A DNA stretch of 64,000 nucleotides from a virus. Taxonomy: Duplodnaviria; Caudoviricetes. The stretch lies in IMG/VR virus record IMGVR_UViG_3300005841_000939, one strand, 5' to 3'. The translations under genes were made by a program, and so were the position numbers. Positions 1-22,200 of this stretch are shown here, one piece after another. The notes under the pieces were generated by a model. That model was not told the origin of the DNA, did not search any database, and saw only the letters and a program-made list of their open reading frames with translations. Each line of letters opens with the position of its first letter. Position 1 is the stretch's first letter.

Positions 1-251
1 TTTGGAATTTTTACCATATCATCCCAACGATAACCTTCTAATATATGCTTCTTTTCTATTTCTGAATAAAATACATGATTAGGTACATCCTTACCATACC
101 GCTTAATAAAGAATGCACATAAAATATGATGCAATGTGTCTTGAACATCTTCTATGGATATACATGGAGGACCTTGATCATATCTCTCACACTTTTCCAA
201 TAACTGCCGTATTGTTATTATCCTATATCCAATGTCTAATCTAATTCTCAT
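1..251 (-). CDS. KxxR-array protein (runs off window edge)
   Basis: Hand translation MRIRLDIGYRIITIRQLLEKCERYDQGPP...; open to position 1; motif KCERYD. Confidence 0.6.
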   Translation of the reverse strand, partial: MRIRLDIGYRIITIRQLLEKCERYDQGPPCISIEDVQDTLHHILCAFFIKRYGKDVPNHVFYSEIEKKHILEGYRWDDMVKIP

Positions 252-384
252 CTAAGTATTTGTCTTTTATATCTTTAAGTATTATTTCAACATAATCTGA
301 ATCTTCACAGAGAAAATAATGACATTGTCTATTTTCTTTAGCAATAAATACACTAATTCTAAAATCTTTATGATAAAACGCCAC
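241..384 (-). CDS. KxxR-array mini-protein, 47 aa
   Basis: Hand translation from GTG: ...FIAKENRQCHYFLCEDSDYVEIILKDIKDKYLDEN*. Confidence 0.55.
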   Translation of the reverse strand: MAFYHKDFRISVFIAKENRQCHYFLCEDSDYVEIILKDIKDKYLDEN

Positions 385-389
385 ACTAA

Positions 390-734
390 TTAACCTAAAT
401 TAATTTTATAGGACTGAGTATTATCAAACAATATCTCCATAAGCTTTGCAGTACTATTACGCTTTATATGTCTTTCTGCATATCTTTCAACTAGTGATTC
501 CCATGTAATCTCTATGTTATCCTTTCTATATGTTTTTAAGAAAGGTGAATATCCATACCGTGTTTCTTTATGACTATAAACTAATTCACCATATTTCCTA
601 GCAACAGCTTTTGGAATAGGTCTATCACAGGAAACTAATTCAGATGGAATAAAATTTGGAAAAGGGGCATTAACTGTCGGGAAATGTATATCATCAAAAC
701 TCATTTTAAATTTCCTTTTGCAGCATATTTCCAT
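390..734 (-). CDS. KxxR-array protein
   Basis: Motif KETRY; ITWESLVERY shared with 701 and 17302 ORFs. Confidence 0.75.
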   Translation of the reverse strand: MEICCKRKFKMSFDDIHFPTVNAPFPNFIPSELVSCDRPIPKAVARKYGELVYSHKETRYGYSPFLKTYRKDNIEITWESLVERYAERHIKRNSTAKLMEILFDNTQSYKINLG

Positions 735-898
735 CTAGATTCGGATATTAAATTATCCCATGTTGCTTTAACATTACCAGAATCATAATTATATCCTTTG
801 TAATTGTTTCGGGTTTCTTTAAGAAATAAATCAATAAATTTGTAAGAAACATCAAATTCTCTTAAATAAATTCCTGGTTTTATATAATTTGTACTCAT
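701..898 (-). CDS. KxxR-array protein
   Basis: Motif KETRNNY. Confidence 0.75.
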   Translation of the reverse strand: MSTNYIKPGIYLREFDVSYKFIDLFLKETRNNYKGYNYDSGNVKATWDNLISESRWKYAAKGNLK

Positions 899-1143
899 TC
901 GTTAACTTTCGTTTAGCTTTTAAAAACTTCTTGACTTGCGGCATTTCTGTGGTAAGATAAATTTTTAGGCTCGGCAAGGAAGGCAACCAAGTTTACAGAC
1001 CCATTTGCTTACTAGAATACCGCTAAGCCGTTTATTGTTATGTTCCTTTATCAATACCTTATTCATATTCATTTTCTTACTCATTTCCCTTTTACTCGTA
1101 TTGGTAATATCTTATTAGCATGTGGCATTGGATTACCGATATA

Positions 1144-1512
1144 TCATGCAACTTTATTAATTCTTTTAATACAAAGCTCTTTCATATAGATTGTTTTATT
1201 TTGGCCTTCAGTAACTAGAGTGTAGAAACATTTTGATTCTATATCTATACCTGCATGCATATTCCATAAGACAGAATCAAGGGATTCCATTTCAGAATCA
1301 CTTGTAGTGTCTATTGAAGCCTTTCTCCATAGAAATACATTTTTAATATGAAGAAAGGCTTGACTAGCTTCTATTGGTTTAGATACTAAATGTCTATCTT
1401 CTTTAGGAAAACAGAATATCACATGGAATCGTTTTCCATGAATAGTTTTATTAAAGCCTTCAATTGGTAATGAAGCATTGCGTTCAGTTGAATAGAATTG
1501 CCAATTACTCAT
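1144..1512 (-). CDS. KxxR-array protein (paralogue of 2456-2752)
   Basis: MSNWQFY...FPKEDRH...IKNVFLW. Confidence 0.8.
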   Translation of the reverse strand: MSNWQFYSTERNASLPIEGFNKTIHGKRFHVIFCFPKEDRHLVSKPIEASQAFLHIKNVFLWRKASIDTTSDSEMESLDSVLWNMHAGIDIESKCFYTLVTEGQNKTIYMKELCIKRINKVA

Positions 1513-1712
1513 AGTCTATCCTTGTCTATGCGGGATTGGATTACTGACCTATTATGTAATGAAATAGCTCTATCATTATATGCCCATATTCCTCTTGGAT
1601 CTGATTTCATCCATGACATCTGTAAGAAATCACTTTTTAATTGAGTAAGGCCTGCCAGACCGGTATGATTTAGTCTAAAATGTCTAGTTTCTTTAATTGA
1701 ATTCCTATTCAT
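1509..1712 (-). CDS. KxxR-array protein
   Basis: Motif KETRH; 4-nt overlap with next gene. Confidence 0.7.
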   Translation of the reverse strand: MNRNSIKETRHFRLNHTGLAGLTQLKSDFLQMSWMKSDPRGIWAYNDRAISLHNRSVIQSRIDKDRL

Positions 1713-2139
1713 AATACCAATCAGGATCCATGAGCGTTAACAGTTTAAATGAGAATATTCCTAAGTCCAAGAAAGAGAAGAATTTAACTAGTCGGAATAG
1801 GAGAGACTTCTTTGGTTTTGGTTGTTCAATGACACGTATACCTGTATCTCTACATGCAGCTACAAACATTGGATACGTAATGAGTGTTTTATCTATTTTA
1901 ATTCGGAATAGTTTGACAAGTACTGGATTCTCTTCTATGAGGACCTCTGTACTTGTAACTTTAGAGAGGAATTTTCTTACGAGACCGTGTACCACCCATT
2001 GTTGCAAAGCACTGGAAACATAGACATCCCTATGGGTTTGATCATGGCAATATGTTTGGCGGGTTATCATGACATCATCAAAATCATGCTGACCAGCAAT
2101 AAGAACAATTTTACCTGCAGAAGTTAATTGAGCTATCAT
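1705..2139 (-). CDS. KxxR-array protein
   Basis: Motif ITRQTY. Confidence 0.75.
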   Translation of the reverse strand: MIAQLTSAGKIVLIAGQHDFDDVMITRQTYCHDQTHRDVYVSSALQQWVVHGLVRKFLSKVTSTEVLIEENPVLVKLFRIKIDKTLITYPMFVAACRDTGIRVIEQPKPKKSLLFRLVKFFSFLDLGIFSFKLLTLMDPDWYYE

Positions 2140-2456
2140 ATTGTTGATTTACTTACTTGTATACCGTTATCTTCATAGAGAAGTGCTTGTGGATTTCTAC
2201 CTTTCTTTATTTTATGGATTTGGATAGGTGTGAGGTCTTTTATTCTAAATCCATTGTCAATAATATTTTTAACAACCATAAGTTCATGGACCGAATTTTC
2301 TCTTGTAAACATATTCGTAATTCTTTGAACCTGACAGTTGTGTGTAAGATATATGCTCTTGAGATGAGGAAATATGTTATGGATTCTGTGATTGATAGGA
2401 AAAATCCTATCTTGTCTACTAAATTTATGATCTGTATTGAACCAATCAATCTGCAT
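2136..2456 (-). CDS. KxxR-array protein
   Basis: Motif KFSRQD. Confidence 0.7.
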   Translation of the reverse strand: MQIDWFNTDHKFSRQDRIFPINHRIHNIFPHLKSIYLTHNCQVQRITNMFTRENSVHELMVVKNIIDNGFRIKDLTPIQIHKIKKGRNPQALLYEDNGIQVSKSTI

Positions 2457-2752
2457 TATTTTCTTCTTGTCCTAAAGCTTTTTATGGGATCTTCTGTACC
2501 CATTTTCATATACCATAAAGTAGCATCAAGAGTAGTCATATCATCAATGATGTCTATGTTTAACTTTAGGAATTTCCATAAGAACATTTCTTTTATATTC
2601 ATGAGAGAACCTGAGCTTTCAAGCTCACGAAAGATCGTATGTCTATCTTCTTTAGGGAAGTACGCTAACTCGCGGAAGACCTTTCCTTGAAAATTACATG
2701 TTCTTCTAAACATATACGCATGCGTACCCTCATAAAATTTCCAATTACTCAT
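2456..2752 (-). CDS. KxxR-array protein (paralogue of 1144-1512)
   Basis: MSNWKFY...FPKEDRH...IKEMFLW. Confidence 0.8.
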   Translation of the reverse strand: MSNWKFYEGTHAYMFRRTCNFQGKVFRELAYFPKEDRHTIFRELESSGSLMNIKEMFLWKFLKLNIDIIDDMTTLDATLWYMKMGTEDPIKSFRTRRK

Positions 2753-2979
2753 ATGTCATCTATTCCTGTTATGGTCGCATACTTATTAGACATAACTCCA
2801 ACATCATCACCGTAATATTCTAAGAAATCGCTATTAAACACAAGAGCTTGTTCCTCAAGAGTCCATTCAATCCCTTTACCTTTAAAGAAATGTCTTTTGC
2901 GTAATTCCAATTCATGAATAGGGTCGTAGGTAAATCTTCGTTGGCGACATTCTTTACAAAAAATTAATCGTTTATGCAT
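2749..2979 (-). CDS. KxxR-array protein (paralogue of 3239-3421)
   Basis: Motif KECRQ; IEWTLEEQA. Confidence 0.75.
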   Translation of the reverse strand: MHKRLIFCKECRQRRFTYDPIHELELRKRHFFKGKGIEWTLEEQALVFNSDFLEYYGDDVGVMSNKYATITGIDDI

Positions 2980-3089
2980 CGGAAATAATAGTGATTAAAA
3001 AGATAGAAAGGGGGTAAGTGGCATTCTGCATCGCAAATATGTATAAATACTGATTATCCGTTCATAAATTCATCTTTGCGGTCATAGAC

Positions 3090-3242
3090 TTACAACTTTG
3101 TTGGCTTTAATAATGCTGGAATGAGTGATTTATCGGCATCCCTCGTCCATAATCTGACGCAATATGAGTGTCTAAATTTTCTCCATTTTTCCATATCTGG
3201 CGGCTGAGGTTCTGTATACCTATTAATTATTAAACGTGTCAT
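3090..3242 (-). CDS. KxxR-array mini-protein, 50 aa
   Basis: Hand translation MTRLIINRYTEPQPPDMEKWRKFRHSY...; ATG overlaps upstream stop. Confidence 0.6.
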   Translation of the reverse strand: MTRLIINRYTEPQPPDMEKWRKFRHSYCVRLWTRDADKSLIPALLKPTKL

Positions 3243-3421
3243 GAGTCTTGAAATAGACCTTCAGGGATCATGGCATCACAATAAACTTTTGCTTGTTCTC
3301 GGATAGACCATTCAATGTTTCTTATGACGAAGAATTCTACTTTTAACATGTCAACATAGGCCTCAGAATAAAACATACACCTATAGTATCTTGTTTCCTT
3401 TATGAAGAGTGATCCGTTCAT
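3239..3421 (-). CDS. KxxR-array protein
   Basis: Motif KETRYY; IEWSIREQA. Confidence 0.75.
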   Translation of the reverse strand: MNGSLFIKETRYYRCMFYSEAYVDMLKVEFFVIRNIEWSIREQAKVYCDAMIPEGLFQDS

Positions 3422-3642
3422 ATATTAACTGGAGGTTGTGGGCAGAGAATGGTATTGATTCTATGTTGGTTATCAAGTAATGACTCACGCATACCTTCTT
3501 CATGTATGAACTCTTCTATAAGAATTGCTACGTCATACTCTATCCAATAAATTAGCAATTTTTTATCCGTCAATCGGTTTATTTTTTTGTCATCATATAT
3601 CATGCGTTGTGTATTCATGAATAAGACGAATTCCGTGTACAT
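3418..3642 (-). CDS. KxxR-array protein
   Basis: Motif KINRLT; NQHRI. Confidence 0.7.
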   Translation of the reverse strand: MYTEFVLFMNTQRMIYDDKKINRLTDKKLLIYWIEYDVAILIEEFIHEEGMRESLLDNQHRINTILCPQPPVNI

Positions 3643-3883
3643 CTAGGAAATTTTGGACATCAAGATTATCATACATAGTTTTTTCGGTTAATTTTAATGC
3701 TTTCACAACAAATTCTATTCCATATATAAAAAACAGAAATTCATCAGCCCTATATGTACAGTTGTATAAGCTTTTAGGATGATGATATTCAAGAGATAGA
3801 TCAGGTGATAAAAACTTACTTTTAAGTGCATTAAATCCATAGGTAACGGAATGATAGCAATATGTATGTCTATTTTCTTTCAT
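3593..3883 (-). CDS. KxxR-array protein (paralogue of 5257-5529)
   Basis: MKENRHTY...ADEFLFF. Confidence 0.8.
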   Translation of the reverse strand: MKENRHTYCYHSVTYGFNALKSKFLSPDLSLEYHHPKSLYNCTYRADEFLFFIYGIEFVVKALKLTEKTMYDNLDVQNFLDVHGIRLIHEYTTHDI

Positions 3884-4152
3884 TATTTGAATAGACCCTG
3901 AATACCATATTGATCAAGTATGCACTTTTGTTTTATATCTTTAATTCGGTATTCATTGGCTATGAATGAATTAGGGTTTAAGTTAGATGAAGGATTATCC
4001 GAGGTAATTATTAAACTATCATCTCGTTTCCAACCAAATACATATTCCTTTAATTCAACTAAAGCCATAATTTTTGACTTAAAATTGAAGGGATTTTTAT
4101 ATTGATTTTGCCTATTTATTGGAGTATTGATAAGGGTCAAAATATCTGTCAT
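3883..4152 (-). CDS. KxxR-array protein (paralogue of 4973-5260)
   Basis: PINRQ...FGWKRDDS...ANEYRI. Confidence 0.8.
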   Translation of the reverse strand: MTDILTLINTPINRQNQYKNPFNFKSKIMALVELKEYVFGWKRDDSLIITSDNPSSNLNPNSFIANEYRIKDIKQKCILDQYGIQGLFK

Positions 4153-4297
4153 ATGTTTCCATTAAAATACTTTGAATTCGCAGGTCATTTGTTCTTATAT
4201 AAATAGAAGGTTTTATTTTTAAGAAGCTTTCTCGTATTTTGCAAGTATACAATAAAAGATCCCCAGCGAAAGGATATGTATTTCTATTGACCTTAAT
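4112..4297 (-). CDS. KxxR-array member lacking ATG (ATT start or pseudogene), 61 aa
   Basis: Open frame (M)KVNRNTYPFAGDLLLYTCKIRESFLK...TNDLRI; AAGGA 7 nt upstream of ATT. Confidence 0.55.
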   Translation of the reverse strand: MKVNRNTYPFAGDLLLYTCKIRESFLKIKPSIYIRTNDLRIQSILMETYDRYFDPYQYSNK

Positions 4298-4310
4298 ACG
4301 ATATTCCTTA

Positions 4311-4562
4311 TTATTTTATTATACTATCTTTATAGTTATAAGAAGAGAATGAATTACCTAGCCAGTCAGGTTGATGGCATTCTGGTTTAAATCCCCAAAA
4401 TTCTATAAGTTGTTTATGTGTTACAACTTTGTCCCATAATGTTCTTTTGCGGCTTTTTAAATATTCTAGAACAACACGACTTTGCCAATCTTCAAAATAA
4501 TACTTCACTACTGAAGAATCGTAGGTATATCTAGTAGCTTTCATAGTGAAGCGAATCAACAT
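4311..4562 (-). CDS. KxxR-array protein
   Basis: Motif KATRYTY. Confidence 0.75.
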   Translation of the reverse strand: MLIRFTMKATRYTYDSSVVKYYFEDWQSRVVLEYLKSRKRTLWDKVVTHKQLIEFWGFKPECHQPDWLGNSFSSYNYKDSIIK

Positions 4563-4566
4563 AATT

Positions 4567-4971
4567 TTATTTTTTAGACTGGAGGCTGATATTGAAAAAC
4601 TTTTGTATATTTTCCATGTTATGATCTGAATTGTTCATGAAATTATTTAAGTCTAGCAATAAATAAGGGTCTTCTTTAATAACACTAGGACATAATTTTA
4701 TTCCGTATCCAGCCGCAACTATTGGAAAATCACGATGATTATATATGAAGTTTTCATTTACTTTTAAAATTATGCGTAATTGTTTTAGATGATTAGAAAA
4801 TTTAAGAAAAGTATTTGCCCTCTCATCACATGCATATAAAGTTTTTTCTTGTGAATAATGTATATAAAAATCTAGATCATATTTTTCAAAAAATCTTCTT
4901 TTTAATGCTGTTATAGACACTACCATATCATAAATTGAAGGAAGTTCTTCTGAATGTCTATTTATTTTCAT
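4567..4971 (-). CDS. KxxR-array protein
   Basis: MKINRHS. Confidence 0.75.
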   Translation of the reverse strand: MKINRHSEELPSIYDMVVSITALKRRFFEKYDLDFYIHYSQEKTLYACDERANTFLKFSNHLKQLRIILKVNENFIYNHRDFPIVAAGYGIKLCPSVIKEDPYLLLDLNNFMNNSDHNMENIQKFFNISLQSKK

Positions 4972-4972
4972 T

Positions 4973-5260
4973 TTAGGTCAAGTATCTAAATTTAGTTGGT
5001 GCTGACATATATTTTTCAAAATCTTCTGATTTAATAAGTTCTCTAATTCGGAATTCGTTAGAGATAAAAGATTCTGGCTTATGTGTCCTTGTTTTTGTAA
5101 TCTCATTGTAGATAAATGAATCTTTCCGTTTCCATCCAAAGTAAGATTCCTTAAGAATAATAATGCAAGTAATGCGATCCCTTGGAGCATATCTCTCTAT
5201 ATACGTGTGTCTATTCATCTTTTCTTGAATAGATTGTAGTGTGTGCATGGTTTCAATCAT
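4973..5260 (-). CDS. KxxR-array protein
   Basis: KMNRHTY...FGWKRKDS...SNEFRI. Confidence 0.8.
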   Translation of the reverse strand: MIETMHTLQSIQEKMNRHTYIERYAPRDRITCIIILKESYFGWKRKDSFIYNEITKTRTHKPESFISNEFRIRELIKSEDFEKYMSAPTKFRYLT

Positions 5261-5529
5261 GAAATTAGTTTAATATCATAACTGTTAAGACAATTAATAA
5301 CACGCTGATTAGTAAATATATCCTTATCTTTTATTCCTAGGTCTTTTTTAGCAGCATCAACCCAACGTGAGAAAAAATAGAATTCATCTGCTTTGACAGA
5401 ATACCATTGCAGACCTTTAAATACATTTAAAGATAATGGAAGGAGATTTGGTCTAAACTCCGATTTTAATGTAGTAAATCCGGTATAAACACTTAGCTTG
5501 CCTTTATATGTTTGTCTATTTTCTTTCAT
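5257..5529 (-). CDS. KxxR-array protein
   Basis: MKENRQTY...ADEFYFF. Confidence 0.8.
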   Translation of the reverse strand: MKENRQTYKGKLSVYTGFTTLKSEFRPNLLPLSLNVFKGLQWYSVKADEFYFFSRWVDAAKKDLGIKDKDIFTNQRVINCLNSYDIKLIS

Positions 5530-5536
5530 TTAATTA

Positions 5537-5779
5537 TCAGTCTTGCGCTGCATCCAAAGAATCTTTAAGGTATTGGTCTTTTCTTATTTCTAATATTCTT
5601 TTTTCATTTGCTGTAATTGATCTATCATTTGAATATATATTAGGCTCATCATAAGTTTTTGTTATGCCAAAAAATGTGTATTTAATATCTCTAAGAAAAA
5701 TAATAGGTGATCTTGGAAAATTATTTTTATATGTCTGTCTATTAAATTTTATTTTTAAAATTTTTATTGCAGGTAACAT
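5537..5779 (-). CDS. KxxR-array protein
   Basis: KFNRQTY...ANEKRI. Confidence 0.8.
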   Translation of the reverse strand: MLPAIKILKIKFNRQTYKNNFPRSPIIFLRDIKYTFFGITKTYDEPNIYSNDRSITANEKRILEIRKDQYLKDSLDAAQD

Positions 5780-5780
5780 G

Positions 5781-5975
5781 TTAATATAATACTATACTAA
5801 TATTTTCAATACGAAATCTAGGTGGAAATAAAAGTTCTCTTACTCTATCTTCATATTCAAACATCATTTTCATATTTTTATCATCTGTGTAATTTAAAAA
5901 ACGATATTTCAACATGACTATTCCAGCAAATGGAGGATTTTTAATATATGTATTCCTATTTTGTTTTATTGGCAT
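5781..5975 (-). CDS. KxxR-array protein
   Basis: KQNRNTY...YEDRV. Confidence 0.75.
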   Translation of the reverse strand: MPIKQNRNTYIKNPPFAGIVMLKYRFLNYTDDKNMKMMFEYEDRVRELLFPPRFRIENISIVLY

Positions 5976-6025
5976 AGTTATCTAATAACATCATTTTTTG
6001 ATAATGGGGGTTGTTTATAACTTTT

Positions 6026-6136
6026 CATTTTTCGGCTAGCACAATAATTAATTCTCCATGCACACCACGTATCCTTGATTAGTTTTTCATCATTATTCAT
6101 CAATTTGTATCTATTTAATTTAAAACTATTCTTCAT
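6026..6136 (-). CDS. KxxR-array mini-protein or truncated member, 36 aa
   Basis: Hand translation MKNSFKLNRYKLMNNDEKLIKDTWCAW... Confidence 0.45.
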
Positions 6137-8156: not shown

Positions 8157-8383
8157 TAAACTAAACCTTTAAACTCTATTCCATTATCGGAATCTTTATA
8201 CATAAAAAAGGATTTAGAATTATTCAGGAAAAGAAATTTAGTTAATATATATTTCCACTTGTTGTTTATTTGTTTAAACGAATCGGATTTATAGTTTTCT
8301 CTATATTCTTTTGTTAAAAATGCTGAAATAGATATAGATACAGGATCTATCGGGAAGTTTTCCATAATTATTTTTCTAAACAA
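8156..8383 (-). CDS. KxxR-array protein
   Basis: KEYRENY. Confidence 0.7.
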   Translation of the reverse strand: MFRKIIMENFPIDPVSISISAFLTKEYRENYKSDSFKQINNKWKYILTKFLFLNNSKSFFMYKDSDNGIEFKGLV

Positions 8384-8735
8384 AATTTAATAATTTATAA
8401 TTGTGATTTTTTAAGATTGAATATCGTGATCGTAAACCTATATTTGGTTTTATGTCTTCTTTCTTAAAAAAATTAATAATTAAATTTTGCCAGGACTCTT
8501 TGATAGTGTTTAATGCATATTCTGATTTAAAATTATTTCTATTTTCTTTATTTAATTCAATTTCATAAACAGAATTATTGAAATTAATTGGCACATATGG
8601 AGCATAAACATAACCAACATCCCAAGTATCATCAAACCTTTTTGTATATTTTAAAACATCATCTTTTAAAATATTTAATATTTCATCTTCTATTTCTTTT
8701 TTATATTTTTCAACAAGCTCATCAATATTTTTCAT
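8376..8735 (-). CDS. Mini-protein with T4 gp23-like major-capsid C-terminal motifs interrupted by a KxxR module
   Basis: EIEDEILNIL / DVGYVYAPYVPI / KPNIGLRSRYSI flank KENRNNF...TIKESW. Confidence 0.65.
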   Translation of the reverse strand: MKNIDELVEKYKKEIEDEILNILKDDVLKYTKRFDDTWDVGYVYAPYVPINFNNSVYEIELNKENRNNFKSEYALNTIKESWQNLIINFFKKEDIKPNIGLRSRYSILKNHNYKLLNFV

Positions 8736-9337: not shown

Positions 9338-9349
9338 ATGTTACCTATT

Positions 9350-9782: not shown

Positions 9783-9784
9783 GT

Positions 9785-10293: not shown

Positions 10294-10414
10294 GAATTGA
10301 TAAATTTTTATTATTTATCATTAAAAATCCAATTTTTAAATCTGAATAGACATGAAGTGAAAAATATATTGTTTCTCTTGATACATTCAGTGAATTTCTA
10401 TTAATTTTATTCAT
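10229..10414 (-). CDS. KxxR-array protein
   Basis: MNKINRNS...AHDKRM. Confidence 0.75.
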   Translation of the reverse strand: MNKINRNSLNVSRETIYFSLHVYSDLKIGFLMINNKNLSIHVAEYIHAHDKRMYDFYRFRR

Positions 10415-10925
10415 TTTTACTTCTAAACCATTGATAATCTAGGTCATAATTTGTATTAGTTGGTCCGTAAAGATCAACTGATGGTACTTCCCCCTCGTTA
10501 AATGGTTTTGTCCAAATTGGCCAAATAAATCTTTCTATATGCTCCATGTGGATTCTATCAACAAGATGCGCTGAATGCCAAACGTACTTGTCAATAAACC
10601 TCATTCTTATATCCGACCAAGTTGATGCACTAAAATAGTCAACTCTTCTAGGATTATCTGAATGTCTATCTGAAAAAGTAAACCAATAAGGTCTAATATC
10701 AAAATCGTTGTAATGTATATTGTCTATCCAGGAAGCATTATCTCTATTCTCTAATATGAATTCAATATGATGATGTCTTTTATTTCTAAAACTTTCTGAA
10801 ATAAATGTATCATAACCTATAAAAGGTTTAATACAATTCCTTAATTCATTCTCATCAATGTCTAATGTAGGTATTCCATTAATTCGGATTATACTTTCTA
10901 TTTCGTTGATCTTGTCATAAACCAT
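10407..10925 (-). CDS. Hypothetical protein in KxxR array (motif weak)
   Basis: 172-aa ORF coupled to neighbours; RNKRHH and WSDIRMRF...HMEHI resemble the family helices. Confidence 0.7.
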   Translation of the reverse strand: MVYDKINEIESIIRINGIPTLDIDENELRNCIKPFIGYDTFISESFRNKRHHHIEFILENRDNASWIDNIHYNDFDIRPYWFTFSDRHSDNPRRVDYFSASTWSDIRMRFIDKYVWHSAHLVDRIHMEHIERFIWPIWTKPFNEGEVPSVDLYGPTNTNYDLDYQWFRSKNE

Positions 10926-11142: not shown

Positions 11143-11362
11143 ATTCTTTATTAGCTAATAAGTTATTATATTTGTGTACGAATGGTCCATATCTTATATC
11201 AATAACATCTATGTCCGCATATGTTATGTGATTTATTTCCTTTCCAGGATTCTCAATACTAAAAATAAAAAGTGTACGAATAATTCTCAATCCTGAACTA
11301 ATTACAATTGCATACTCATATTCTTTATATTGCCTAGTATCTTTTTTAATTTTTTTAATCAT
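11132..11362 (-). CDS. KxxR-array protein
   Basis: KDTRQY. Confidence 0.75.
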   Translation of the reverse strand: MIKKIKKDTRQYKEYEYAIVISSGLRIIRTLFIFSIENPGKEINHITYADIDVIDIRYGPFVHKYNNLLANKEYVF

Positions 11363-11561
11363 TTATTGTCTTGAAACCATCTTTTTCTAGGATCCGTATT
11401 ATTCTATCTTCACTATATCGTATGTTTGTTGGGCAATCAAGTTTTATCTCTTCTTGAGGTATTTTTAAAAATGTTTCTTTCAAATGACAATAATCAAAAG
11501 AAAACCAGGAGCGCATTTCTGTGAGAGAGGTATATCTATCAACCTTCTCATCATACATCAT
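11355..11561 (-). CDS. KxxR-array protein
   Basis: KVDRYT...LKETFL...YSEDRI. Confidence 0.75.
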   Translation of the reverse strand: MMYDEKVDRYTSLTEMRSWFSFDYCHLKETFLKIPQEEIKLDCPTNIRYSEDRIIRILEKDGFKTIND

Positions 11562-13047: not shown

Positions 13048-13333
13048 AGAAGGAAAACTGTATCATTTTCAGTTAAGGTATGTCCAATGTCTTCCAATAG
13101 CAAGTTTACAATACGTTCCTCATATTTCAATAGGATTCTTTTACCTTCATCTTCATCTGTTCCATAATGCGCCAACAAATAATCATTTCCGTAAGGATCA
13201 ACATCCCACTCATAAAAATATTTTTTATTTAATTTACGTGATGAAAATATTACTTTGATAATAACCCATAGTTCTACGTCAAAGGTATTTTTATATAGCT
13301 TACTATGATGCCTATTTGTTTTTTGTTTATCAT
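13041..13333 (-). pseudogene. Frameshifted KxxR-array member
   Basis: ATG at 13333 overlaps the upstream TGA but is out of frame with a ~95-codon open frame (KTNRHHS...KYEERIV); one extra A in the A6 run at 13319-13324 would join them. Confidence 0.6.
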
Positions 13334-13548
13334 ATAAGTTTTAACAAAGATACATCTACTTCAATTTGATTTTTTCTTGAAATTCTACGTCCCTCAACCA
13401 ATATTGAATCAATTTTCTGATGATTCAATTCCTCCTCCATAGATATATTATATTTAATAATTCTCAAAGCAGAAAGAAACGTGACTAAATTCTCCATGTT
13501 AAATGTTTTATCAGTGTTTCTATTTATTTTATAAGGACTTGCAAACAT
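13330..13548 (-). CDS. KxxR-array protein
   Basis: KINRNT...VEGRRI. Confidence 0.75.
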   Translation of the reverse strand: MFASPYKINRNTDKTFNMENLVTFLSALRIIKYNISMEEELNHQKIDSILVEGRRISRKNQIEVDVSLLKLI

Positions 13549-15510: not shown

Positions 15511-15539
15511 TACGGTATTTTATTGATGCATATAAAAAA

Positions 15540-16059: not shown

Positions 16060-16412
16060 TTGAAATTATAAACTCCCTCAATATATTCTGTTGGGTCAAA
16101 TTCACTGAAATCCCAACCAGTTATTTCATCATGTTCATTTCTATATATAATTGCATATGTTTGCGGAAAAGAGAGCGTAACTTTCATATCTTCTGCAGGC
16201 AACATAAGTTTCCTATCAAATAACCAACGAATTCTATAAAAAGCCCATCCTTTCCAATAATGAGCTATATTCCAATCCCACATGAAAAAATACATCTTTT
16301 TAAGAGATGATGGATCATATTGACGATTGAATTTAATATCTATAAACTCATGTGAAAATATTTCACCTGGTAAAAGATTATCCTCATAAAATGACAGCGG
16401 CATATTTGCCAT
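16056..16412 (-). CDS. KxxR-array protein
   Basis: KFNRQY. Confidence 0.75.
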   Translation of the reverse strand: MANMPLSFYEDNLLPGEIFSHEFIDIKFNRQYDPSSLKKMYFFMWDWNIAHYWKGWAFYRIRWLFDRKLMLPAEDMKVTLSFPQTYAIIYRNEHDEITGWDFSEFDPTEYIEGVYNFK

Positions 16413-16702
16413 TACGTGTAATCCTCATAAGATAAACAATTATAGAGAGGTTGAGCAATTATATCTTTAAATCGTGAATGATGATCCAATAACTTTTCAT
16501 CCATCAAGAACGTTAATTTATAAAATTGCAGGTCTCTAAATGACTCTTTCCACTTTACATTATTATTTTGATTGTGTCTAGTAATTTTTGCATACAGGTC
16601 TTCAAACTCCATAACCGTATAAAGATTATGTCCTGAAATACCACTTTTATCAGGAATCAAGTCAAAACGTAAATTCCTGATTCTTATTTTTGCCGCAGCC
16701 AT
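16412..16702 (-). CDS. KxxR-array protein
   Basis: KITRHN. Confidence 0.75.
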   Translation of the reverse strand: MAAAKIRIRNLRFDLIPDKSGISGHNLYTVMEFEDLYAKITRHNQNNNVKWKESFRDLQFYKLTFLMDEKLLDHHSRFKDIIAQPLYNCLSYEDYT

Positions 16703-16911
16703 TCTATTTTATCCCTTGGATCATTTATGCCTAGTAGAGAGATTAATTCAGATTTAGATAATTCATTATTCCAAATTCTATTTCTATGTTGTTCTATAAA
16801 ATTGGCAACCAATATGCTTCGCCAACCATTGAGAATTTCATATCTAGGATTATCTAATGCGGTATAATTATACCTATCCTCATAATCATGCCTTGTCTTT
16901 AAAATACTCAT
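16684..16911 (-). CDS. KxxR-array protein
   Basis: LKTRHDY. Confidence 0.75.
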   Translation of the reverse strand: MSILKTRHDYEDRYNYTALDNPRYEILNGWRSILVANFIEQHRNRIWNNELSKSELISLLGINDPRDKIEWLRQK

Positions 16912-16929
16912 AAGTTTCGCAAATTAATC

Positions 16930-17130
16930 TTATAATTTTGTTTTGTTAGTTTTAAACTTTCTTTCCTCTACAACCTTCCACAATCCAGTTTCTAAATTAA
17001 TGTGAATTTCAAAAATTCTATTTGGGAATTTTTTGTTTAAAAAGTTTTTAGAACAAAATCCAAAATAATCCTCAGAACAAGCTGTTGTATCAGGATAATT
17101 ATATCTATGAATTTTATCTTGAATGCACAT
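16930..17130 (-). CDS. KxxR-array protein
   Basis: KIHRYNY. Confidence 0.7.
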   Translation of the reverse strand: MCIQDKIHRYNYPDTTACSEDYFGFCSKNFLNKKFPNRIFEIHINLETGLWKVVEERKFKTNKTKL

Positions 17131-17305
17131 AATTTTTCTTCAAAACATTAAACAATGAAAATCTGTAATCAGATGACATATTTAAACTTTTTTTATATCT
17201 TGTGTCTTTTTTATTTATCAATTCATCATAATTTAATTTATCTGCATTAGTTTTCATCATATATAACTGAAAATCAATATTTTCTTCAAAAAAATCTTGA
17301 TTCAT
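17114..17305 (-). CDS. KxxR-array protein
   Basis: KDTRYK. Confidence 0.7.
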   Translation of the reverse strand: MNQDFFEENIDFQLYMMKTNADKLNYDELINKKDTRYKKSLNMSSDYRFSLFNVLKKNYVHSR

Positions 17306-17529
17306 AATGGTATCTCAAATAAATTATATCTAAAAATAGTTGTTGGTATTGAACTTATAAATCTTTCTCTTAAACTTCTCCATGTAATATCAAGTCTATC
17401 ATATGGTTGATCGTTATTGATAGGGCGGATTGATCCCAGACGATGCATAATTAATTCAGAAGGATATGTAATTGACCATTCAGGTGTTTGCCTCCAATGT
17501 TTATATGTTTCACGACTAACTTTTTTCAT
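17302..17529 (-). CDS. KxxR-array protein
   Basis: KVSRETY; ITWRSLRERF like the 390 ORF. Confidence 0.75.
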   Translation of the reverse strand: MKKVSRETYKHWRQTPEWSITYPSELIMHRLGSIRPINNDQPYDRLDITWRSLRERFISSIPTTIFRYNLFEIPL

Positions 17530-17734
17530 TAAAAATCCAATGTTTTTTATGAGTCTCTATTATTTCTTCTATTGTATACCCCAAAGATTGTATATGCAAA
17601 TAACCATTTGGTAATACCGAATAATTAGGTATAGTATCTGGAAAATTCTTTAAAAACAATTCAGGATATGCTTTCCAAGAAGCGTACTGATGTCTGTTGA
17701 TTTTATTTTGGAGAATAAGATTTGTTAATATCAT
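17516..17734 (-). CDS. KxxR-array protein
   Basis: KINRHQY. Confidence 0.75.
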   Translation of the reverse strand: MILTNLILQNKINRHQYASWKAYPELFLKNFPDTIPNYSVLPNGYLHIQSLGYTIEEIIETHKKHWIFNEKS

Positions 17735-18180
17735 AAATCATATTGCCATTCTTTTCCTGCTTTAAATCCATATTTAAGATATGCTGCTTGAGCTTTCATG
17801 TTGGTATCTTCAACAAACAACGTCAGTTTATCACACCCTTCAGCTATGGCTATCTTTTTGCAAGCATCTAGCAGTCTCATTAAGTGACCTCTTCGTCTAA
17901 ATTCTTGTGCAATAATGACACCGTCAATATATAAATTTTTGGCGTTTCTCCAATCACTAAATTTAAATGATGCTCTCAGACATCCAACATAATTTTCTTC
18001 ATCTTCAGCGATCAGATAAAATCCATGTTCAGCAGTTTTTGCATTAAGAATTGTTGTTATTCCATCAACTAACTTTGGAGGAATTTCATTATATTCTTCC
18101 ATTGCCAAATTATATTGGAGGAAGATTAATGGGGTTAAATGTTCTATTGTAGCTCTGCGTATTGTCATAATATTATTCAA
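17731..18180 (-). CDS. GNAT-family N-acetyltransferase
   Basis: Motif A VIIAQEFRRRGHLMRLL and motif B LFVEDTNMKAQAAYLKYGF. Confidence 0.9.
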   Translation of the reverse strand: MNNIMTIRRATIEHLTPLIFLQYNLAMEEYNEIPPKLVDGITTILNAKTAEHGFYLIAEDEENYVGCLRASFKFSDWRNAKNLYIDGVIIAQEFRRRGHLMRLLDACKKIAIAEGCDKLTLFVEDTNMKAQAAYLKYGFKAGKEWQYDL

Positions 18181-18478
18181 AGGATGATGGTTTACTTTCC
18201 ATCACATAAACTGTTGTTTGATGTGACGATGGAAATACTACTAAATGCTTTTTAATTAAAAAATCCAATCTTATGTACGCTATTGGATACAGATGCAATT
18301 TATAGAAAAGTAAACCTTGGAAAGAATTTCTTGTAATCTTATGTGAAAGAACATGATCTGTTGTAGTTGTATATACTCTTTCTCTAAAATCTTTTGCAGT
18401 TGCAACATATTCACTGCCCAAAAAACTATAATTTACTATGTCCACACGTACTTTCAATGGTTCAAAATGCAATTGCAT
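18173..18478 (-). CDS. KxxR-array protein (motif internal)
   Basis: KITRNSF...IRLDFLIKK. Confidence 0.75.
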   Translation of the reverse strand: MQLHFEPLKVRVDIVNYSFLGSEYVATAKDFRERVYTTTTDHVLSHKITRNSFQGLLFYKLHLYPIAYIRLDFLIKKHLVVFPSSHQTTVYVMESKPSSFE

Positions 18479-18480
18479 AA

Positions 18481-18747
18481 TTAATATTTGTAAATTTCTA
18501 ATAAACGTGGCGTGGAATCATCATGTATTTTAACAAAATAAAATCTTGTTGCTAACCAATATTTAACAAAATCATTTGATAATTTTATTTCTATTGAATA
18601 TCTATTAAATTTTGAAAATCTCCTACGATTATAGGTTTTAAGAACCCAGTCTATTTGTATATGATCAGTATCATCGCTTACAAGCAACTCCTCAAAATAA
18701 GGATTTTGTTTAGGCTTAGGCACGAAATATTTAAAAAAAGAATTCAT
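18481..18747 (-). CDS. KxxR-array protein (motif internal)
   Basis: KFNRYS. Confidence 0.75.
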   Translation of the reverse strand: MNSFFKYFVPKPKQNPYFEELLVSDDTDHIQIDWVLKTYNRRRFSKFNRYSIEIKLSNDFVKYWLATRFYFVKIHDDSTPRLLEIYKY

Positions 18748-18995
18748 ACCACATATCCTTTTGGCTCAATAACTCCTTTTGTTTTAAGAAAATAAAATCG
18801 CATATAATGCAAGAAGTACCATTGAAAATTTTGTTTGATTACATGTCTATGAACAACACTATTAACTTCTGAATAAAATACCAGAATATCAGACCTTTGC
18901 AAAAATCCGTCAGTGTTTACTACAGCTAAACTATATCTAGGAATTTCAAACTTGCAAAATGCAGCATTATGATAATTAAAACTAATAGACATCAA
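18744..18995 (-). CDS. KxxR-array protein (motif weak)
   Basis: EIPRYS...YMRFYFL. Confidence 0.65.
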   Translation of the reverse strand: MMSISFNYHNAAFCKFEIPRYSLAVVNTDGFLQRSDILVFYSEVNSVVHRHVIKQNFQWYFLHYMRFYFLKTKGVIEPKGYVV

Positions 18996-19690
18996 AAAAT
19001 TTCAGCTTTAACAATATCAAGAACCTGTTTACATTTTTCTAAATCAAATAAATCGTTAGTTCTTAGTTTTGATTCCATATCAATCCAAGTTGGAATTGTT
19101 TCTGTTTTACTCAGAATATCTAATAGGTTTTCTTTGACATTTTCTGGACCCATTCCACCTGCATATCCACAATACCTACCAGGAAGTGGTTCCTGCCATT
19201 TGGTTGCTTCAATTCCACGGCCACCCGATGCATCAAATAGGAATGCGTGGTTCGTATAATGAACCATATGATGCCATATATGCCCATTACTGACATTATG
19301 CTGCGTTAAAAACGTTTTGTCTGGTGTTAGTACAAACAAATTTTCTAAGTCGCTTAAATCAAATGGATTTTTATGTATGTTGAAATTTAGCTGAATCCGT
19401 TGAAATGGTTTAATCAAGGTAAGCATTTCATGATCACCATTTAATATTCTAGGAACTGCATCTCCGCACAAATGAATAGCAAAATTGCCTGTATGTCGTT
19501 TATATATTTCTTCTGAAAGTTCTTTAATCCATTTTTCACTTGGGTATCGCCCACCACCTCCACACCTTTTTGGTGAAAATAATATACCCCATTCAACAAA
19601 GTTGTATTGATCACTCAATTCAAATAACTTATTGATAGGAGTTGAATCATCAGCACCAGTCAAGGTACAAATAAATTTAGGACGATACAT
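18992..19690 (-). CDS. Phosphoribosylanthranilate-isomerase-like TIM-barrel protein
   Basis: CTLTGAD, EWGILFS, FLFDASGGRG, GYAGGMGPENV, WIDMESKLR match the PRAI-like family seen in large phages. Confidence 0.75.
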   Translation of the reverse strand: MYRPKFICTLTGADDSTPINKLFELSDQYNFVEWGILFSPKRCGGGGRYPSEKWIKELSEEIYKRHTGNFAIHLCGDAVPRILNGDHEMLTLIKPFQRIQLNFNIHKNPFDLSDLENLFVLTPDKTFLTQHNVSNGHIWHHMVHYTNHAFLFDASGGRGIEATKWQEPLPGRYCGYAGGMGPENVKENLLDILSKTETIPTWIDMESKLRTNDLFDLEKCKQVLDIVKAEIF

Positions 19691-19709
19691 AAGAGCTTTC
19701 TAATTGTTG

Positions 19710-19737
19710 TTGACAACTAACATTTTTATTTGAAAAT
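19710..19737 (+). promoter_or_regulatory. sigma70-like promoter TTGACA-N16-GAAAAT
   Basis: 6 nt upstream of ATG 19744; same geometry as other promoters in the window. Confidence 0.45.
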
Positions 19738-19743
19738 CGTAAT

Positions 19744-19932
19744 ATGTCAAGAGCACAATTACTAGAAGAAATCAAAAAATTAGAGGATCAAGAATCACAA
19801 TTGATGATTCAATGGTCTGAGGCTACAGATCCTTTAATTATTGAATTACTTTCTGCAACATTGGAATTGACAAGAGCAGGTATAAAATTATCTAAAGTTG
19901 GACTTAAAATTGAAGACGCTAATAGATTTTAG
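19744..19932 (+). CDS. Small helical/coiled-coil protein, the only plausible plus-strand gene inside the array
   Basis: Fills the gap between minus-strand genes, has its own promoter-like site, amphipathic helices. Confidence 0.65.
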   Translation: MSRAQLLEEIKKLEDQESQLMIQWSEATDPLIIELLSATLELTRAGIKLSKVGLKIEDANRF

Positions 19933-20219
19933 AAAAACAATCTAGTAAACTTCTCGCGAGTTTTTATTTTATATTTATTTGATAAGAATAACAAACATAA
20001 GACTACAAAATTTTCATTCTCAATTTTTTCATATGTTTCAATATTAGTATTACGTGTAAACTTATAAGTTTTATCACTTATAATCATATAACATATCCAC
20101 TCATTACGATGATATATTATCTCACATGGCGAATGACTTATTAATGTTATTGATGCTGTACGAAAATTTGTAGAGCCAATTAACTTTGCAGGCTTTAATG
20201 TAGTATTCTCCAAGTTCAT
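19929..20219 (-). CDS. KxxR-array protein (motif internal)
   Basis: KFTRNT...LLFLSNKY. Confidence 0.7.
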   Translation of the reverse strand: MNLENTTLKPAKLIGSTNFRTASITLISHSPCEIIYHRNEWICYMIISDKTYKFTRNTNIETYEKIENENFVVLCLLFLSNKYKIKTREKFTRLFF

Positions 20220-20328
20220 ATAAGTACTTTTGATTATTTCGCGTTACTTTTCTATTAAGTTCATATAAAGCTAATTGCAATTGAATTAATTCAGAATCAC
20301 TAAAATCAGAATAGTAATCTTTCATCAA
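20122..20328 (-). CDS. KxxR-array protein
   Basis: KVTRNN. Confidence 0.7.
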   Translation of the reverse strand: MMKDYYSDFSDSELIQLQLALYELNRKVTRNNQKYLYELGEYYIKACKVNWLYKFSYSINNINKSFAM

Positions 20329-20530
20329 CAGACATTATAACACCTTTATCAATTAACCATTTTGTGCGCCAATATATAAACCCATCAGACGTATTATAAA
20401 TGTCAAAAATATATTTACTTGTTTGACGATTTACATTACACTTTAGATCATTCCATTCCTCTTCATAATATATGTCGCTTGAATCCTTGACATTAATTTT
20501 GAATACTCTCTCAAACATAGTATATCGCAA
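20306..20530 (-). CDS. KxxR-array protein
   Basis: NVNRQT. Confidence 0.7.
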   Translation of the reverse strand: MRYTMFERVFKINVKDSSDIYYEEEWNDLKCNVNRQTSKYIFDIYNTSDGFIYWRTKWLIDKGVIMSVDERLLF

Positions 20531-20585
20531 GTTTACAGTGTTCTTTTGTTAAGCAATCAAGAAGTGTTTCCTAAACATAAAGGAT

Positions 20586-20879
20586 TTAAGAGATAGCATG
20601 CGCCACCATTTCCTCATCCTCACATGTATTTTTTGCAAGCCATAAATGCGAAACTATTTCAAACCCTACGCCAAAGAATTCATGATCATAATCCATCAAA
20701 TCTTCTTTAATGGCATAAGTTCCATATCTAGATTCTGGCATCATAAGCATATATACAAAACATAATAACATTTCGCTATCAGTTTCATTAAATCCACCAT
20801 ATATTTCAGAAATTTCTTCATAATATTTTTCAGAAATACAATATGAATCCACTTCTCTATCACGTATGTCTAGCGCCAT
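20586..20879 (-). CDS. Acidic hypothetical protein in array (motif weak)
   Basis: PESRYGTY; coupled to neighbour. Confidence 0.65.
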   Translation of the reverse strand: MALDIRDREVDSYCISEKYYEEISEIYGGFNETDSEMLLCFVYMLMMPESRYGTYAIKEDLMDYDHEFFGVGFEIVSHLWLAKNTCEDEEMVAHAIS

Positions 20880-21238
20880 TGATTTTTGTCCGATAAAAAT
20901 TCTAAAAATTGGTTTTCATGTTTAATATCATTTAAAAATAATATAGACAATGCAATAAGTTTAATTTCAGCATCTATTGCGTCTTTAAAAAATAAATTAT
21001 TTTCTTCTTCATACCTACCTATTTTTTCAGCATCTTTATCTATTTTCAATGCCATTTTAAGATATTTTTTATTTCTAGGAACTTCAAAAACAAATCCCCT
21101 ACCATGTTCAAGCGTTGAATAATTTGAAATTATATTTATGGTATCATTGAAATACCGACGAAAACTAGTATTATCTTCATCCTTAAAAGTAAAATACAAA
21201 GAATGACCTTCGCTATCTTTTCTCATGAAGATTATCAT
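20870..21238 (-). CDS. KxxR-array protein (motif internal)
   Basis: KIGRYE...LSILFL. Confidence 0.7.
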   Translation of the reverse strand: MIIFMRKDSEGHSLYFTFKDEDNTSFRRYFNDTINIISNYSTLEHGRGFVFEVPRNKKYLKMALKIDKDAEKIGRYEEENNLFFKDAIDAEIKLIALSILFLNDIKHENQFLEFLSDKNQWR

Positions 21239-21558
21239 TCAATGTCCCTAAACACCATTTTCTTCCATTCTATATCTTTTTCATTAAACCACAACCATTT
21301 TAGTTCAACAAGAGAACAAGGTCTGTTTGAATCGCAAAAATCTTTATCTTCTGATTGTGTTAATCTATTATTAAATCTACTTACTTGTTCATTAATATAT
21401 TTAAGAATAGATGATTTTGACATTACCCAATGACAAGAATTATCTTCTAAGTCAGTGACATATAACCATATGTGTTTATTATGTTTTTCACGAAGGATTC
21501 TTCCTACTTGAAAAAACTTAGATTGTGAGGAATCATACACTTGTAAAAAGCTATCCAT
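21235..21558 (-). CDS. Hypothetical protein in array (motif weak)
   Basis: QVSRFN; ATGA overlap. Confidence 0.65.
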   Translation of the reverse strand: MDSFLQVYDSSQSKFFQVGRILREKHNKHIWLYVTDLEDNSCHWVMSKSSILKYINEQVSRFNNRLTQSEDKDFCDSNRPCSLVELKWLWFNEKDIEWKKMVFRDIE

Positions 21559-21622
21559 AACGTAAATTCCTTATGGTAAAATGATTTCAAAACTTAATAT
21601 CTATAACTATCTATACTCTCTT

Positions 21623-21892
21623 TCAATTGAAAAACCCAAAATGTGCATAAAAATATTCACCGCTTGCCTCTACATCAGAATATTTTCTTTGTAAAAAATG
21701 CGTAACTAACATCGCTAAATTACAATTTTTAAATGTATTACCACCGTTGTCATGCCTGTTTATTTTAATTGATAATGATATATTGATCTCTTTGTATGAA
21801 GGAAAAACTATAGAACCTTCTTTAACACGAAGATAAAACAAATCTTCACAGCAAATGGATATTACTTTATCATAAATAAAGTCCATTACCAT
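21623..21892 (-). CDS. KxxR-array protein (motif internal)
   Basis: IKINRHD...LVTHFLQRKY. Confidence 0.75.
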   Translation of the reverse strand: MVMDFIYDKVISICCEDLFYLRVKEGSIVFPSYKEINISLSIKINRHDNGGNTFKNCNLAMLVTHFLQRKYSDVEASGEYFYAHFGFFN

Positions 21893-22200
21893 TTTATCTC
21901 ATATTCTGTTGTGATAAATACTTCTGTACAATTCATATCCGTCTTATCATCAGTGTTTAAAAACTTTTTAATAAGTATAGGCATTGGAATAGTTACAATC
22001 ATGAATGTATTTGTTATATCTTGTCTTCCAATTTTTATCTGAAGAAGTTGATCAACATATGATATTCTTAATCTTACTGTTTGTATAGTGTCATCTTTAG
22101 TATTAATTACATATTGGTCATTTTCAACATGAACTGTTCCTCTTTTTATTAAAGATACATATGTAATTACTGGATCAAAACTAGGCAGTTGGTATTGCAT
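21886..22200 (-). CDS. KxxR-array protein (motif internal)
   Basis: IKIGRQD...LIKKFL. Confidence 0.75.
   Translation of the reverse strand: MQYQLPSFDPVITYVSLIKRGTVHVENDQYVINTKDDTIQTVRLRISYVDQLLQIKIGRQDITNTFMIVTIPMPILIKKFLNTDDKTDMNCTEVFITTEYEIKW

Follow-up and report, generated by a model that had tools for sequence, protein, structure and literature searches.

A tandem array of small, diverged proteins sharing a K-x-[N/T/D/S]-R module in a T4-related jumbo phage from rhizosphere metagenomes

A 64,000-nucleotide stretch of tailed-phage DNA (Caudoviricetes; IMG/VR record IMGVR_UViG_3300005841_000939), which we refer to as the window, begins with a long head-to-tail array of small minus-strand open reading frames (ORFs). 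The array fills positions 1–22,200 (Table 1), and most of its ORFs encode variants of one module, which we call KxNR and which is recognisable by the motif K-x-[NTDS]-R-[QHNY]-x-Y. Judged by its sequence, the module is a lineage-specific, undescribed family in a new phage lineage. Minus-strand genes run almost wall to wall across the window up to ~57 kb; G+C content is 26–33% in the first 22 kb and 30–44% in the remainder.

An initial annotation of this DNA had singled out the motif from the sequence alone, and counting leaves little doubt about it. When minus-strand ORFs of at least 36 residues are chained without overlap, 85 of them cover 98.5% of the region; the core motif is found in 52 of these versus 2.9 ± 1.7 after residue shuffling (maximum 9 in 1000 shuffles; ~18-fold), and the strict form K.[NTDS]R[QHNY].Y in 17 versus 0.11 expected from the shuffles (~150-fold). 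Across positions 1–22,200, the three minus-strand frames contain K.[NTDS]R[QHNYFL] 58 times and the plus-strand frames three times; the minus-strand frames of the other 41.8 kb of the window hold 11 occurrences. The codons behind the motif confirm that selection acts on the protein, as had been proposed: the motif arginine is encoded by AGA (33), AGG (7), CGT (7), CGA (3) and CGG (2), in agreement with the arginine codons of the region at large (AGA 229, AGG 57, CGT 66, CGA 37, CGC 26, CGG 11), and the other positions likewise draw on many synonymous codons, with ten codons for the four residues of position 3.

Two further blocks follow the motif. An [LIVM][KR]..[FYW] block is present in 34 of the 52 members versus 6.8 in shuffles, mostly with 15–24 residues between the motif arginine and the phenylalanine, and a [DE].R[IVLAM] block in 15 of the 52 versus 3.3. 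Neither played a part in selecting members, so the ~5-fold enrichment of both bears out the helix-like elements first noticed in the sequence, which we write as h-K-x-x-F-h and [DE]-x-R-h (h, hydrophobic). The same three blocks are visible in the column profile of a hidden Markov model (HMM) of the family. When the motif was removed and the HMM cross-validated four-fold, 16 of 49 members outranked all 20 of their own shuffles, where about two were expected: one third of the family is demonstrably homologous in sequence beyond the motif, the remainder being too diverged to tell.

How many proteins belong to the family depends on the stringency applied. The iterated HMM, run over all six-frame stop-to-stop segments, recovered 55 secure members (E < 0.01), all on the array strand, and none among ~1,200 control segments. 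Relaxed motifs and four ORFs in gaps of the original ORF track bring the number with a recognisable motif to ~67, and degenerate forms extend it to ~75 of ~95 ORFs. The annotated picture of ~80 mini-proteins comprising nearly every ORF therefore stands as to a large array built on one motif and falls short as to number, clear non-members being interspersed; the prediction that gaps in the ORF track encode members proved correct at 4253–4310, 10294–10406, 13179–13329 and 20220–20305. About 25 unrelated small genes lie among the family members, including the GNAT acetyltransferase and the 232-residue ORF of Table 1 and further non-members at 10407–10925 and 20586–21558. No family member was found outside the array in the 22 kb to its left or the 42 kb to its right, nor in kinase-bearing phage loci that are more distant.

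The array does run off the left edge of the window, as anticipated. A locus from another assembly (L001), 100% identical to the window over 15,779 nt, continues past position 1 and adds seven small array ORFs, at least four of them with the motif, before the array ends ~1.65 kb beyond the edge. The full array thus measures ~24 kb and holds ~92–96 ORFs, ~6% of the 379,560-bp contig described below.

Table 1. Features of the array and its immediate surroundings, in window coordinates (aa, amino acids; pLDDT, AlphaFold2 per-residue confidence measure).
Positions	Strand	Feature	Basis
1..22200	-	Small-ORF array, head-to-tail, ~85 ORFs of 36–232 aa	ORF chain covers 98.5% of strand
3593..5779	-	Old block duplications: A/B pair 3593–3883 + 3883–4152 repeated as 5257–5529 + 4973–5260; further B copy 5537–5779	BLASTP, 33–39% identity
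4253..4310	-	5' part of an ORF, containing the motif; no ATG, GTG or TTG ahead of it	Read from sequence; ATT directly before K-V-N-R-N-T-Y
5257..5529	-	Typical member, motif right after start (M-K-E-N-R-Q-T-Y); paralog of 3593–3883	BLASTP, 39% identity, E 5e-12
5781..5975	-	Member of structure model 2; motif in coil, helix 15–26 (h-K-x-x-F-h), helix 32–49 (E-D-R-V)	AlphaFold2, mean pLDDT 76, 78 for residues 1–10
8376..8735	-	119-aa member, module mid-protein (motif at residue 63)	Sub-threshold flank match to PF07068 Gp23 (T4-type major capsid): E 2.5e-4, 21.0 bits (cut-off 24.4)
11355..11561	-	Member of structure model 1; helices 9–32 and 47–60; Asp before the invariant Arg at N-cap	AlphaFold2, mean pLDDT 78
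13179..13340	-	Motif-bearing ORF (K-T-N-R-H-H) with no in-frame start	Read from sequence; out-of-frame ATG immediately ahead of six consecutive A
17731..18180	-	GNAT acetyltransferase embedded in array, non-member	PF00583, E 5.7e-16
18992..19690	-	232-aa non-member ORF, first gene past the sole large array gap	No Pfam family above threshold
19722..19750	-	Candidate promoter TTGACA, 17 nt, AAAAAT, upstream of 21-kb run	Only perfect TTGACA on array strand; consensus scan, lead only
19744..19932	+	62-aa opposite-strand ORF filling the 238-nt gap, coiled-coil-looking	ORF list, gap sequence
23214..25699	-	Protein kinase (560 aa) and PP2C phosphatase, directly upstream of array	PF00069, 27.3 bits (cut-off 31.7); PF13672, E 3e-17

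Three members are unusual. If ATT initiates at 4253–4310, the ORF there would yield the usual M-K-x-N-R start. The start-less ORF at 13179–13340 has the same sequence in three samples and could, judged by the stretch 13270–13345, be a frameshifted pseudogene or a case of slippage. The product of 8376–8735 may be a chimera with a capsid fragment, an idea resting on a single sub-threshold Pfam match (Table 1) that tblastn and a PDB sequence search did not confirm. A 118-residue gene 163–519 nt to the left of position 1 (L001 15942–16298, plus strand) carries T-D-N-R-Y-D-Y ... L-I-K-S-T-W between V-Q-P-M and G-x-I-Y-x-L-x-Y-V-Y-G; it has no Pfam, tblastn or PDB-sequence support as capsid-related. 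A BLASTP comparison of the array ORFs with the other large ORFs of the window and of the fetched flanking loci revealed no chimeras.

The copies have diverged far. An all-against-all BLASTP search gave eight pairs at E < 1e-3, with 29–53% identity, so the array does not consist of very similar, recently duplicated copies, and identity between copies is usually below 25%. DNA repeats amount to a 25-nt motif-encoding stretch in the closest copies (six genes), with none longer than 60 nt. Few BLASTP pairs of low identity and motif-limited DNA repeats indicate that the duplications, among them the block duplications of Table 1, are old. The expansion of one module by duplication that had been postulated is thus upheld, for copies that now retain at most 53% identity.

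Searches for a known family support the initial impression that the module is not a described one, nothing having risen above noise in Pfam, PHROGs, the PDB, fold libraries or 1.84 billion proteins. Pfam and PHROGs scans with 10 and then 46 members returned no recurrent family. A profile search of 1.84 billion representative proteins at E ≤ 0.001 gave 22 matches, of which 20 were proteins of the window and two were unrelated repeat proteins, and a word-indexed search of 5.8 billion clusters returned only the window's own protein. A single-protein search of IMG/VR for related loci found nothing. A degenerate DNA pattern for M-K-x-N-R-Q-T-Y had two matches in IMG/VR and 58 in JGI metagenomes, all of them single chance matches with no arrays. 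The family profile matched no PDB sequence at E ≤ 10; a possible likeness to T4 AsiA, structures of which are present in the PDB, was dropped on that ground.

The gene layout is compact: genes overlap at 63 of the 84 array junctions (4 nt at 21 of them, 1 nt at 7), a count that may be too high because starts were taken from the longest ORF. Only ten gaps exceed 50 nt, and the only large one, of 238 nt, lies at 19691–19928. The plus-strand ORF at 19744–19932 may divide the array into two units of transcription. Inside the array, searches found no tRNA genes, no Rfam families and no convincing terminators, which together with the overlapping junctions fits a few long polycistronic units. In a sigma-70 scan of the array, promoter-like sites were fewer than in shuffles, and Bacteroidetes-type -7 boxes were uninformative, many being the reverse complement of the motif's own codons. 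Shine-Dalgarno (SD) sequences are rare, preceding 11 of 34 large window genes and 8 of 85 array ORFs; this scarcity suggests, from the gene starts, a host that initiates without SD sequences, such as a member of the Bacteroidota. Opposite three of the array genes, the plus strand has a 177-residue ORF (2157–2690) that is probably open by chance, in a slightly more G+C-rich part of the array.

The phage that carries the array is very large. A protein look-up with one array member led to a contig of 379,560 bp (ENA ERZ27252182 k141_6275370), whose plus strand is the window's minus strand (record coordinate = 315,539 minus window position). This length lies beyond the >200 kb of the size class, and the contig encodes rIIB (PF26926), an rIIA-like protein and baseplate-like motifs: the array phage is an uncultured, ~380-kb, T4-related (rIIA/rIIB-bearing) jumbo phage from rhizosphere metagenomes. 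Three rhizosphere metagenome runs contain it, with zero differences wherever the contigs overlap the stretch, and no RNA run does; the identity of the sequence in all three leaves no microdiversity usable for selection tests on the array. Larger genes of the window, including a full WGR-PARP, an AAA ATPase, GMP-reductase-like, cytidylyltransferase-like (CTP_transf_like), QueD and R2K ATP-grasp genes and baseplate-like motifs, mark the phage as a large tailed one that encodes many auxiliary functions. A DNA similarity search of the window against 50,697 phage records gave no match; tblastn against phage records gave none for a 1005-residue window protein or for two array proteins, and found distant phage relatives with the window's PARP only.

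Facing the array end on the opposite strand, and thus convergent with it, are genes for an HNH endonuclease, a SprT-like protease, rIIB (PF26926), a 781-residue rIIA-like protein and an AAA_33 kinase-like protein. The HNH endonuclease gene, between SprT and the array end (L007 11521–12039, plus strand), is absent from that position in the related contigs L070 and L072 introduced below and is likely a mobile insertion. At the other end, a VWA-domain protein (31236–31979, minus strand) is encoded near the kinase/PP2C pair of Table 1. Other phage contigs of very large size also encode the PP2C-kinase pair, at 32–34% identity, and the kinase-bearing large phage contigs L003 and L005 have neither an array nor enrichment of the motif. 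Further along the minus strand, three tandem paralogs of ~310 residues (27851–30729) are 34–37% identical to one another and belong to no Pfam family, and four adjacent genes (49020–54533) share modules, including a short BppL_N-like motif, with segments 27–59% identical; by their sequence these four look like a mosaic tail-fibre or baseplate set.

A search with the rIIA-like protein identified two related phages (37–38% identity), represented by contigs L070/L071 (35% G+C) and L072/L073 (43% G+C), with JGI identifiers 3300049856 and 3300044708 for the pair. Their gene order is AAA_33, rIIA, rIIB, small genes, SprT and then a convergent run of small genes that is truncated by the contig end. 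The ORFs of this run carry a looser module, for example I-E-D-R-K-R-H ... Y-V-L-R-C-S-F-I, K-L-T-R-Q-D ... F-L-R-S-K-Y and K-H-D-R-R-S-Y ... A-L-R-A-R-F-V, in which the spacing from arginine to the aromatic residue is the same and the lysine is not conserved. Scored with the array phage's HMM, 9 of 21 of these ORFs ranked above 48 or more of the 50 shuffles made of each, as did none of 18 small control genes on those contigs. Between L070 and L072, rIIA is 58%, rIIB 62%, AAA_33 80% and SprT 42% identical, and only four array orthologs are detectable, at 28–47% identity; between the array phage and these relatives, rIIB is 57% identical and no array ortholog is found beyond a 32-residue match in the motif region. 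The shared position, the weak module and the scarcity of orthologs indicate that the array is ancestral to the clade, occupies a fixed locus and outpaces its neighbours in divergence. The loci compared show the KxNR family, as a sequence family, to be confined to one clade of soil jumbo phages.

In the AlphaFold2 models of two members (Table 1), the module is predicted with moderate confidence to be the motif followed by a helical hairpin. The common fold envisaged in the initial annotation is matched by the hairpin in both models and not by the motif itself, which is coil in model 2 and the start of helix 1 in model 1. Most members have a proline or glycine after the motif, which favours model 2, with the motif outside helix 1; the residues allowed at position 3 (N, T, D and S) are classical helix N-cap residues. 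Foldseek searches of PDB, BFVD and AFDB clusters, shape and feature searches of the ESM Atlas, and a wide VIA-align search gave nothing above noise. The VIA-align comparison covered 48,161 chains and reached a Z of 4.3 at best, with generic helical hairpins, among them PKA/SPA17 docking-dimerisation domains; we regard this as a lead only. By computation the array proteins are soluble, with a transmembrane-like stretch in only three ORFs of the run; their isoelectric points (pI) have a median of 8.9 and range from 4.7 to 10.9, a quarter of the members being acidic.

From these features we propose a tentative scheme. A KxNR protein would be a soluble module of ~55 residues, made from a few long polycistronic transcripts. 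It would open with the N-terminal K-x-[N/T/D/S]-R-[Q/H/N/Y]-x-Y element, the third residue of which is of the typical helix N-cap type; an amphipathic helix with h-K-x-x-F-h would follow after 10–20 variable residues, and usually a second helix with [D/E]-x-R-h would fold back on the first. The conserved lysine/arginine element and the two helix motifs would then serve as a constant scaffold or handle and the rest as a variable surface, so that the array would encode a set of diversified small binders directed at host components, in takeover or counter-defence. We give this reading, which derives from comparison of the genes, about an even chance of being correct. Indications of an anti-defence role are indirect, namely the small size of the proteins, their clustering and their fast divergence; array divergence that exceeds that of the flanking genes is consistent with an arms race, though not proof of one.

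Several observations weigh against diversified host-directed binders. Faster divergence fits relaxed constraint equally well, and two thirds of the members have no detectable similarity beyond the motif in cross-validation; the invariance of lysine and arginine in the seed alignment is there by construction. The likeness to the relatives' arrays is weak, with HMM scores of 5–8 bits that are significant only as a set. The two structure models, of moderate confidence and built from paralog-only alignments, disagree on where the motif lies. Finally, the median pI is mildly basic, unlike that of the acidic DNA-mimic type to which many anti-defence proteins belong.

A first alternative, which we hold to be unlikely, is that the motif is a shared recognition tag read by one enzyme or machine, the family being substrates or cargoes and not autonomous binders. 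Candidate readers would be the kinase/PP2C pair, the phage PARP, the AAA+ protease-like ATPase, the SprT-like protease, or a capsid-targeting or processing system like that of the T4 internal-protein signal. The genes around the array suit such a tag, as kinase and PP2C lie directly upstream, PARP and AAA ATPase in the same co-directional block, and the SprT-like protease adjoins the array in three phages. So do the invariant arginine, the frequent Ser/Thr/Tyr at motif positions 6–7, and a lysine that is invariant in the array phage and not in the relatives' modules, a pattern expected from a genome-specific partner. The position of the motif cuts both ways: in 32 of the 52 members it begins no later than residue 12, and in 10 right after the methionine, but in the other 20 it lies 13–63 residues from the start, and in one near the C-terminus. 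Moreover, positions 6–7 are not always phosphorylatable, no cleavage-type residue is conserved after the motif, ~60 packaged cargo proteins would be unprecedented, and the h-K-x-x-F-h helix at its fixed distance (arginine to phenylalanine mostly 15–24 residues) is more what one would expect of a folded module than of a linear tag.

It is similarly improbable that the array is mostly evolutionary ballast, in which duplication filled spare head-full capacity and drift under weak constraint kept only fold-stabilising residues. Tandem duplication has been proposed as a route of jumbo genome growth (Hua et al. 2017, mBio, PMC5646251), divergence among the paralogs is extreme, the array changes faster than the genes beside it, and the two members lacking a canonical start codon may mean decay. 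Against ballast, nearly all ORFs remain open although at 27% G+C a random ORF would average ~12 codons by an estimate from base composition; the three-block pattern is kept across copies less than 25% identical; the array has stayed in place in phages with no more than 37% rIIA identity; and its sequence is identical in three independent samples.

A more specific version of the host-directed reading is, to our minds, quite improbable as a whole: the KxNR element would be a docking handle for one phage or host machine and the variable rest a bait for host factors or immune sensors, with capsid-fragment members as possible decoys for capsid-sensing defences. On this view the array would parallel, in a phage, the F-box/ankyrin-type adaptor expansions seen in large viruses of eukaryotes, and the lysine difference from the relatives would mark co-evolution with a genome-specific partner. 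An invariant lysine in ~60 copies of less than 25% identity that is not shared by the relatives could reflect either partner co-evolution or expansion from one lysine-bearing ancestor after the split.

We consider it very unlikely that the KxNR proteins are small nucleic-acid-binding regulators, dimeric and of the ribbon-helix-helix (RHH) type or another helical-hairpin kind, with a basic K/N/R/Q arm ahead of two helices. The residues K, N, R and Q are typical of base and phosphate contacts, the median pI is 8.9, and the extended segment, 12-residue helix and 18-residue helix of model 2 reproduce the order and size of an RHH monomer. In model 1, however, the motif lies at a helix start and not in a strand, and a quarter of the members are acidic. 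The inter-helix loop varies from 5 to ~20 residues and lacks the G-x-S/T/N turn that is a feature of RHH proteins. For 46 members, a Pfam scan at E ≤ 1 found no RHH or other DNA-binding family, and the PDB profile search at E ≤ 10 found no RHH protein either. With model 2, whose order is coil-helix-helix, no RHH chain appeared in the best 50 of 48,161 PDB representatives (best Z 4.3), in a comparison where the ribbon between subunits is invisible because the model is a monomer. Nor is there an obvious rationale for one operon with sixty paralogous repressors.

The last alternative, that the motif is a by-product of a nucleic-acid signal repeated at gene starts (a promoter, initiation enhancer or recombination site), draws on the motif often standing right at the start codon, on SD-poor starts (8 of 85 array ORFs with SD) and on the 25-nt DNA repeat family that coincides with the motif in six genes, but it is effectively refuted by the codon data (arginine from five codons and two codon boxes in background proportions, position 3 from ten codons for four residues), with motifs 13–63 codons into ORFs, linked helix motifs 15–24 residues downstream and DNA repeats limited to the closest paralogs further against it.

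Jumbo phages carry hundreds of genes without an assigned function, and large paralog arrays are among the few visible regularities in them. The KxNR array is unusually large, with at least 55 copies in 24 kb or ~6% of the genome. It is also a tractable case for deciding between an arsenal and packaging ballast: the signature is a simple one of three blocks, the module is small enough for synthesis, nuclear magnetic resonance and pooled screening, and the locus is conserved in a clade of soil phages. If the conserved lysine and arginine are a common docking site, the array would represent a new adaptor logic in phage-host conflict and a natural library of small binders.

Arrays of this kind are already known from jumbo phages; what is new here is an unrelated family, a large size and a simple signature. 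Phages G and 121Q carry tandem arrays of more than 30 genes, ascribed to tandem duplication, whose genes are described as 'very similar' (Hua et al. 2017, PMC5646251). The KxNR array likewise belongs to a jumbo phage and is a long head-to-tail run of one family, with 55 HMM members within 22 kb; unlike those 'very similar' copies, its members are at most 53% and usually less than 25% identical, so that only the three-block signature is left. No homology to the 121Q or phage G array families was found, either as a recurrent PHROG among 46 members or as a tblastn or blastn match in 50,697 phage records. In sequence the KxNR family is unrelated to theirs; apart from the two unrelated repeat proteins, the profile search recovers the array phage's own proteins only.

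The early host-takeover blocks of other phages (the SPO1 gp37–60 module, the T4 hyperplastic regions and the phiKZ early ORFans) are made up of unrelated genes that have individual promoters and ribosome-binding sites. The KxNR run resembles them as a dense, one-directional series of small lineage-specific genes beside early-type genes, here rIIA/rIIB, but it is mostly one paralog family, its genes overlap and it has almost no intergenic space.

The T4 internal proteins IPI, IPII, IPIII and Alt share a common N-terminal capsid-targeting sequence and a polymorphic locus, and IPI* is an anti-restriction factor; the signal is strictly N-terminal, ends in a protease site and occurs in 3–4 copies. 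As in T4, otherwise unrelated small proteins are joined by a short conserved peptide in a T4-related genome. The KxNR motif, by contrast, is not confined to the extreme N-terminus of every member, starting anywhere from residue 2 to residue 63, and can be internal; it lacks a conserved cleavage residue, is tied to a downstream helix and is present in ~60 copies.

Among viruses of eukaryotes, the MGF360/505/110 families of African swine fever virus and the ankyrin/PRANC and BTB-kelch expansions of poxviruses have roles in host range and immune evasion, with defined partners such as Skp1 for PRANC/F-box proteins. The KxNR array shares with them the devotion of several per cent of a large viral genome to tandem, fast-diverging paralogs in which a small constant element stands beside variable surfaces. 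It differs in that its proteins are much smaller (50–100 residues) and belong to a bacterial virus.

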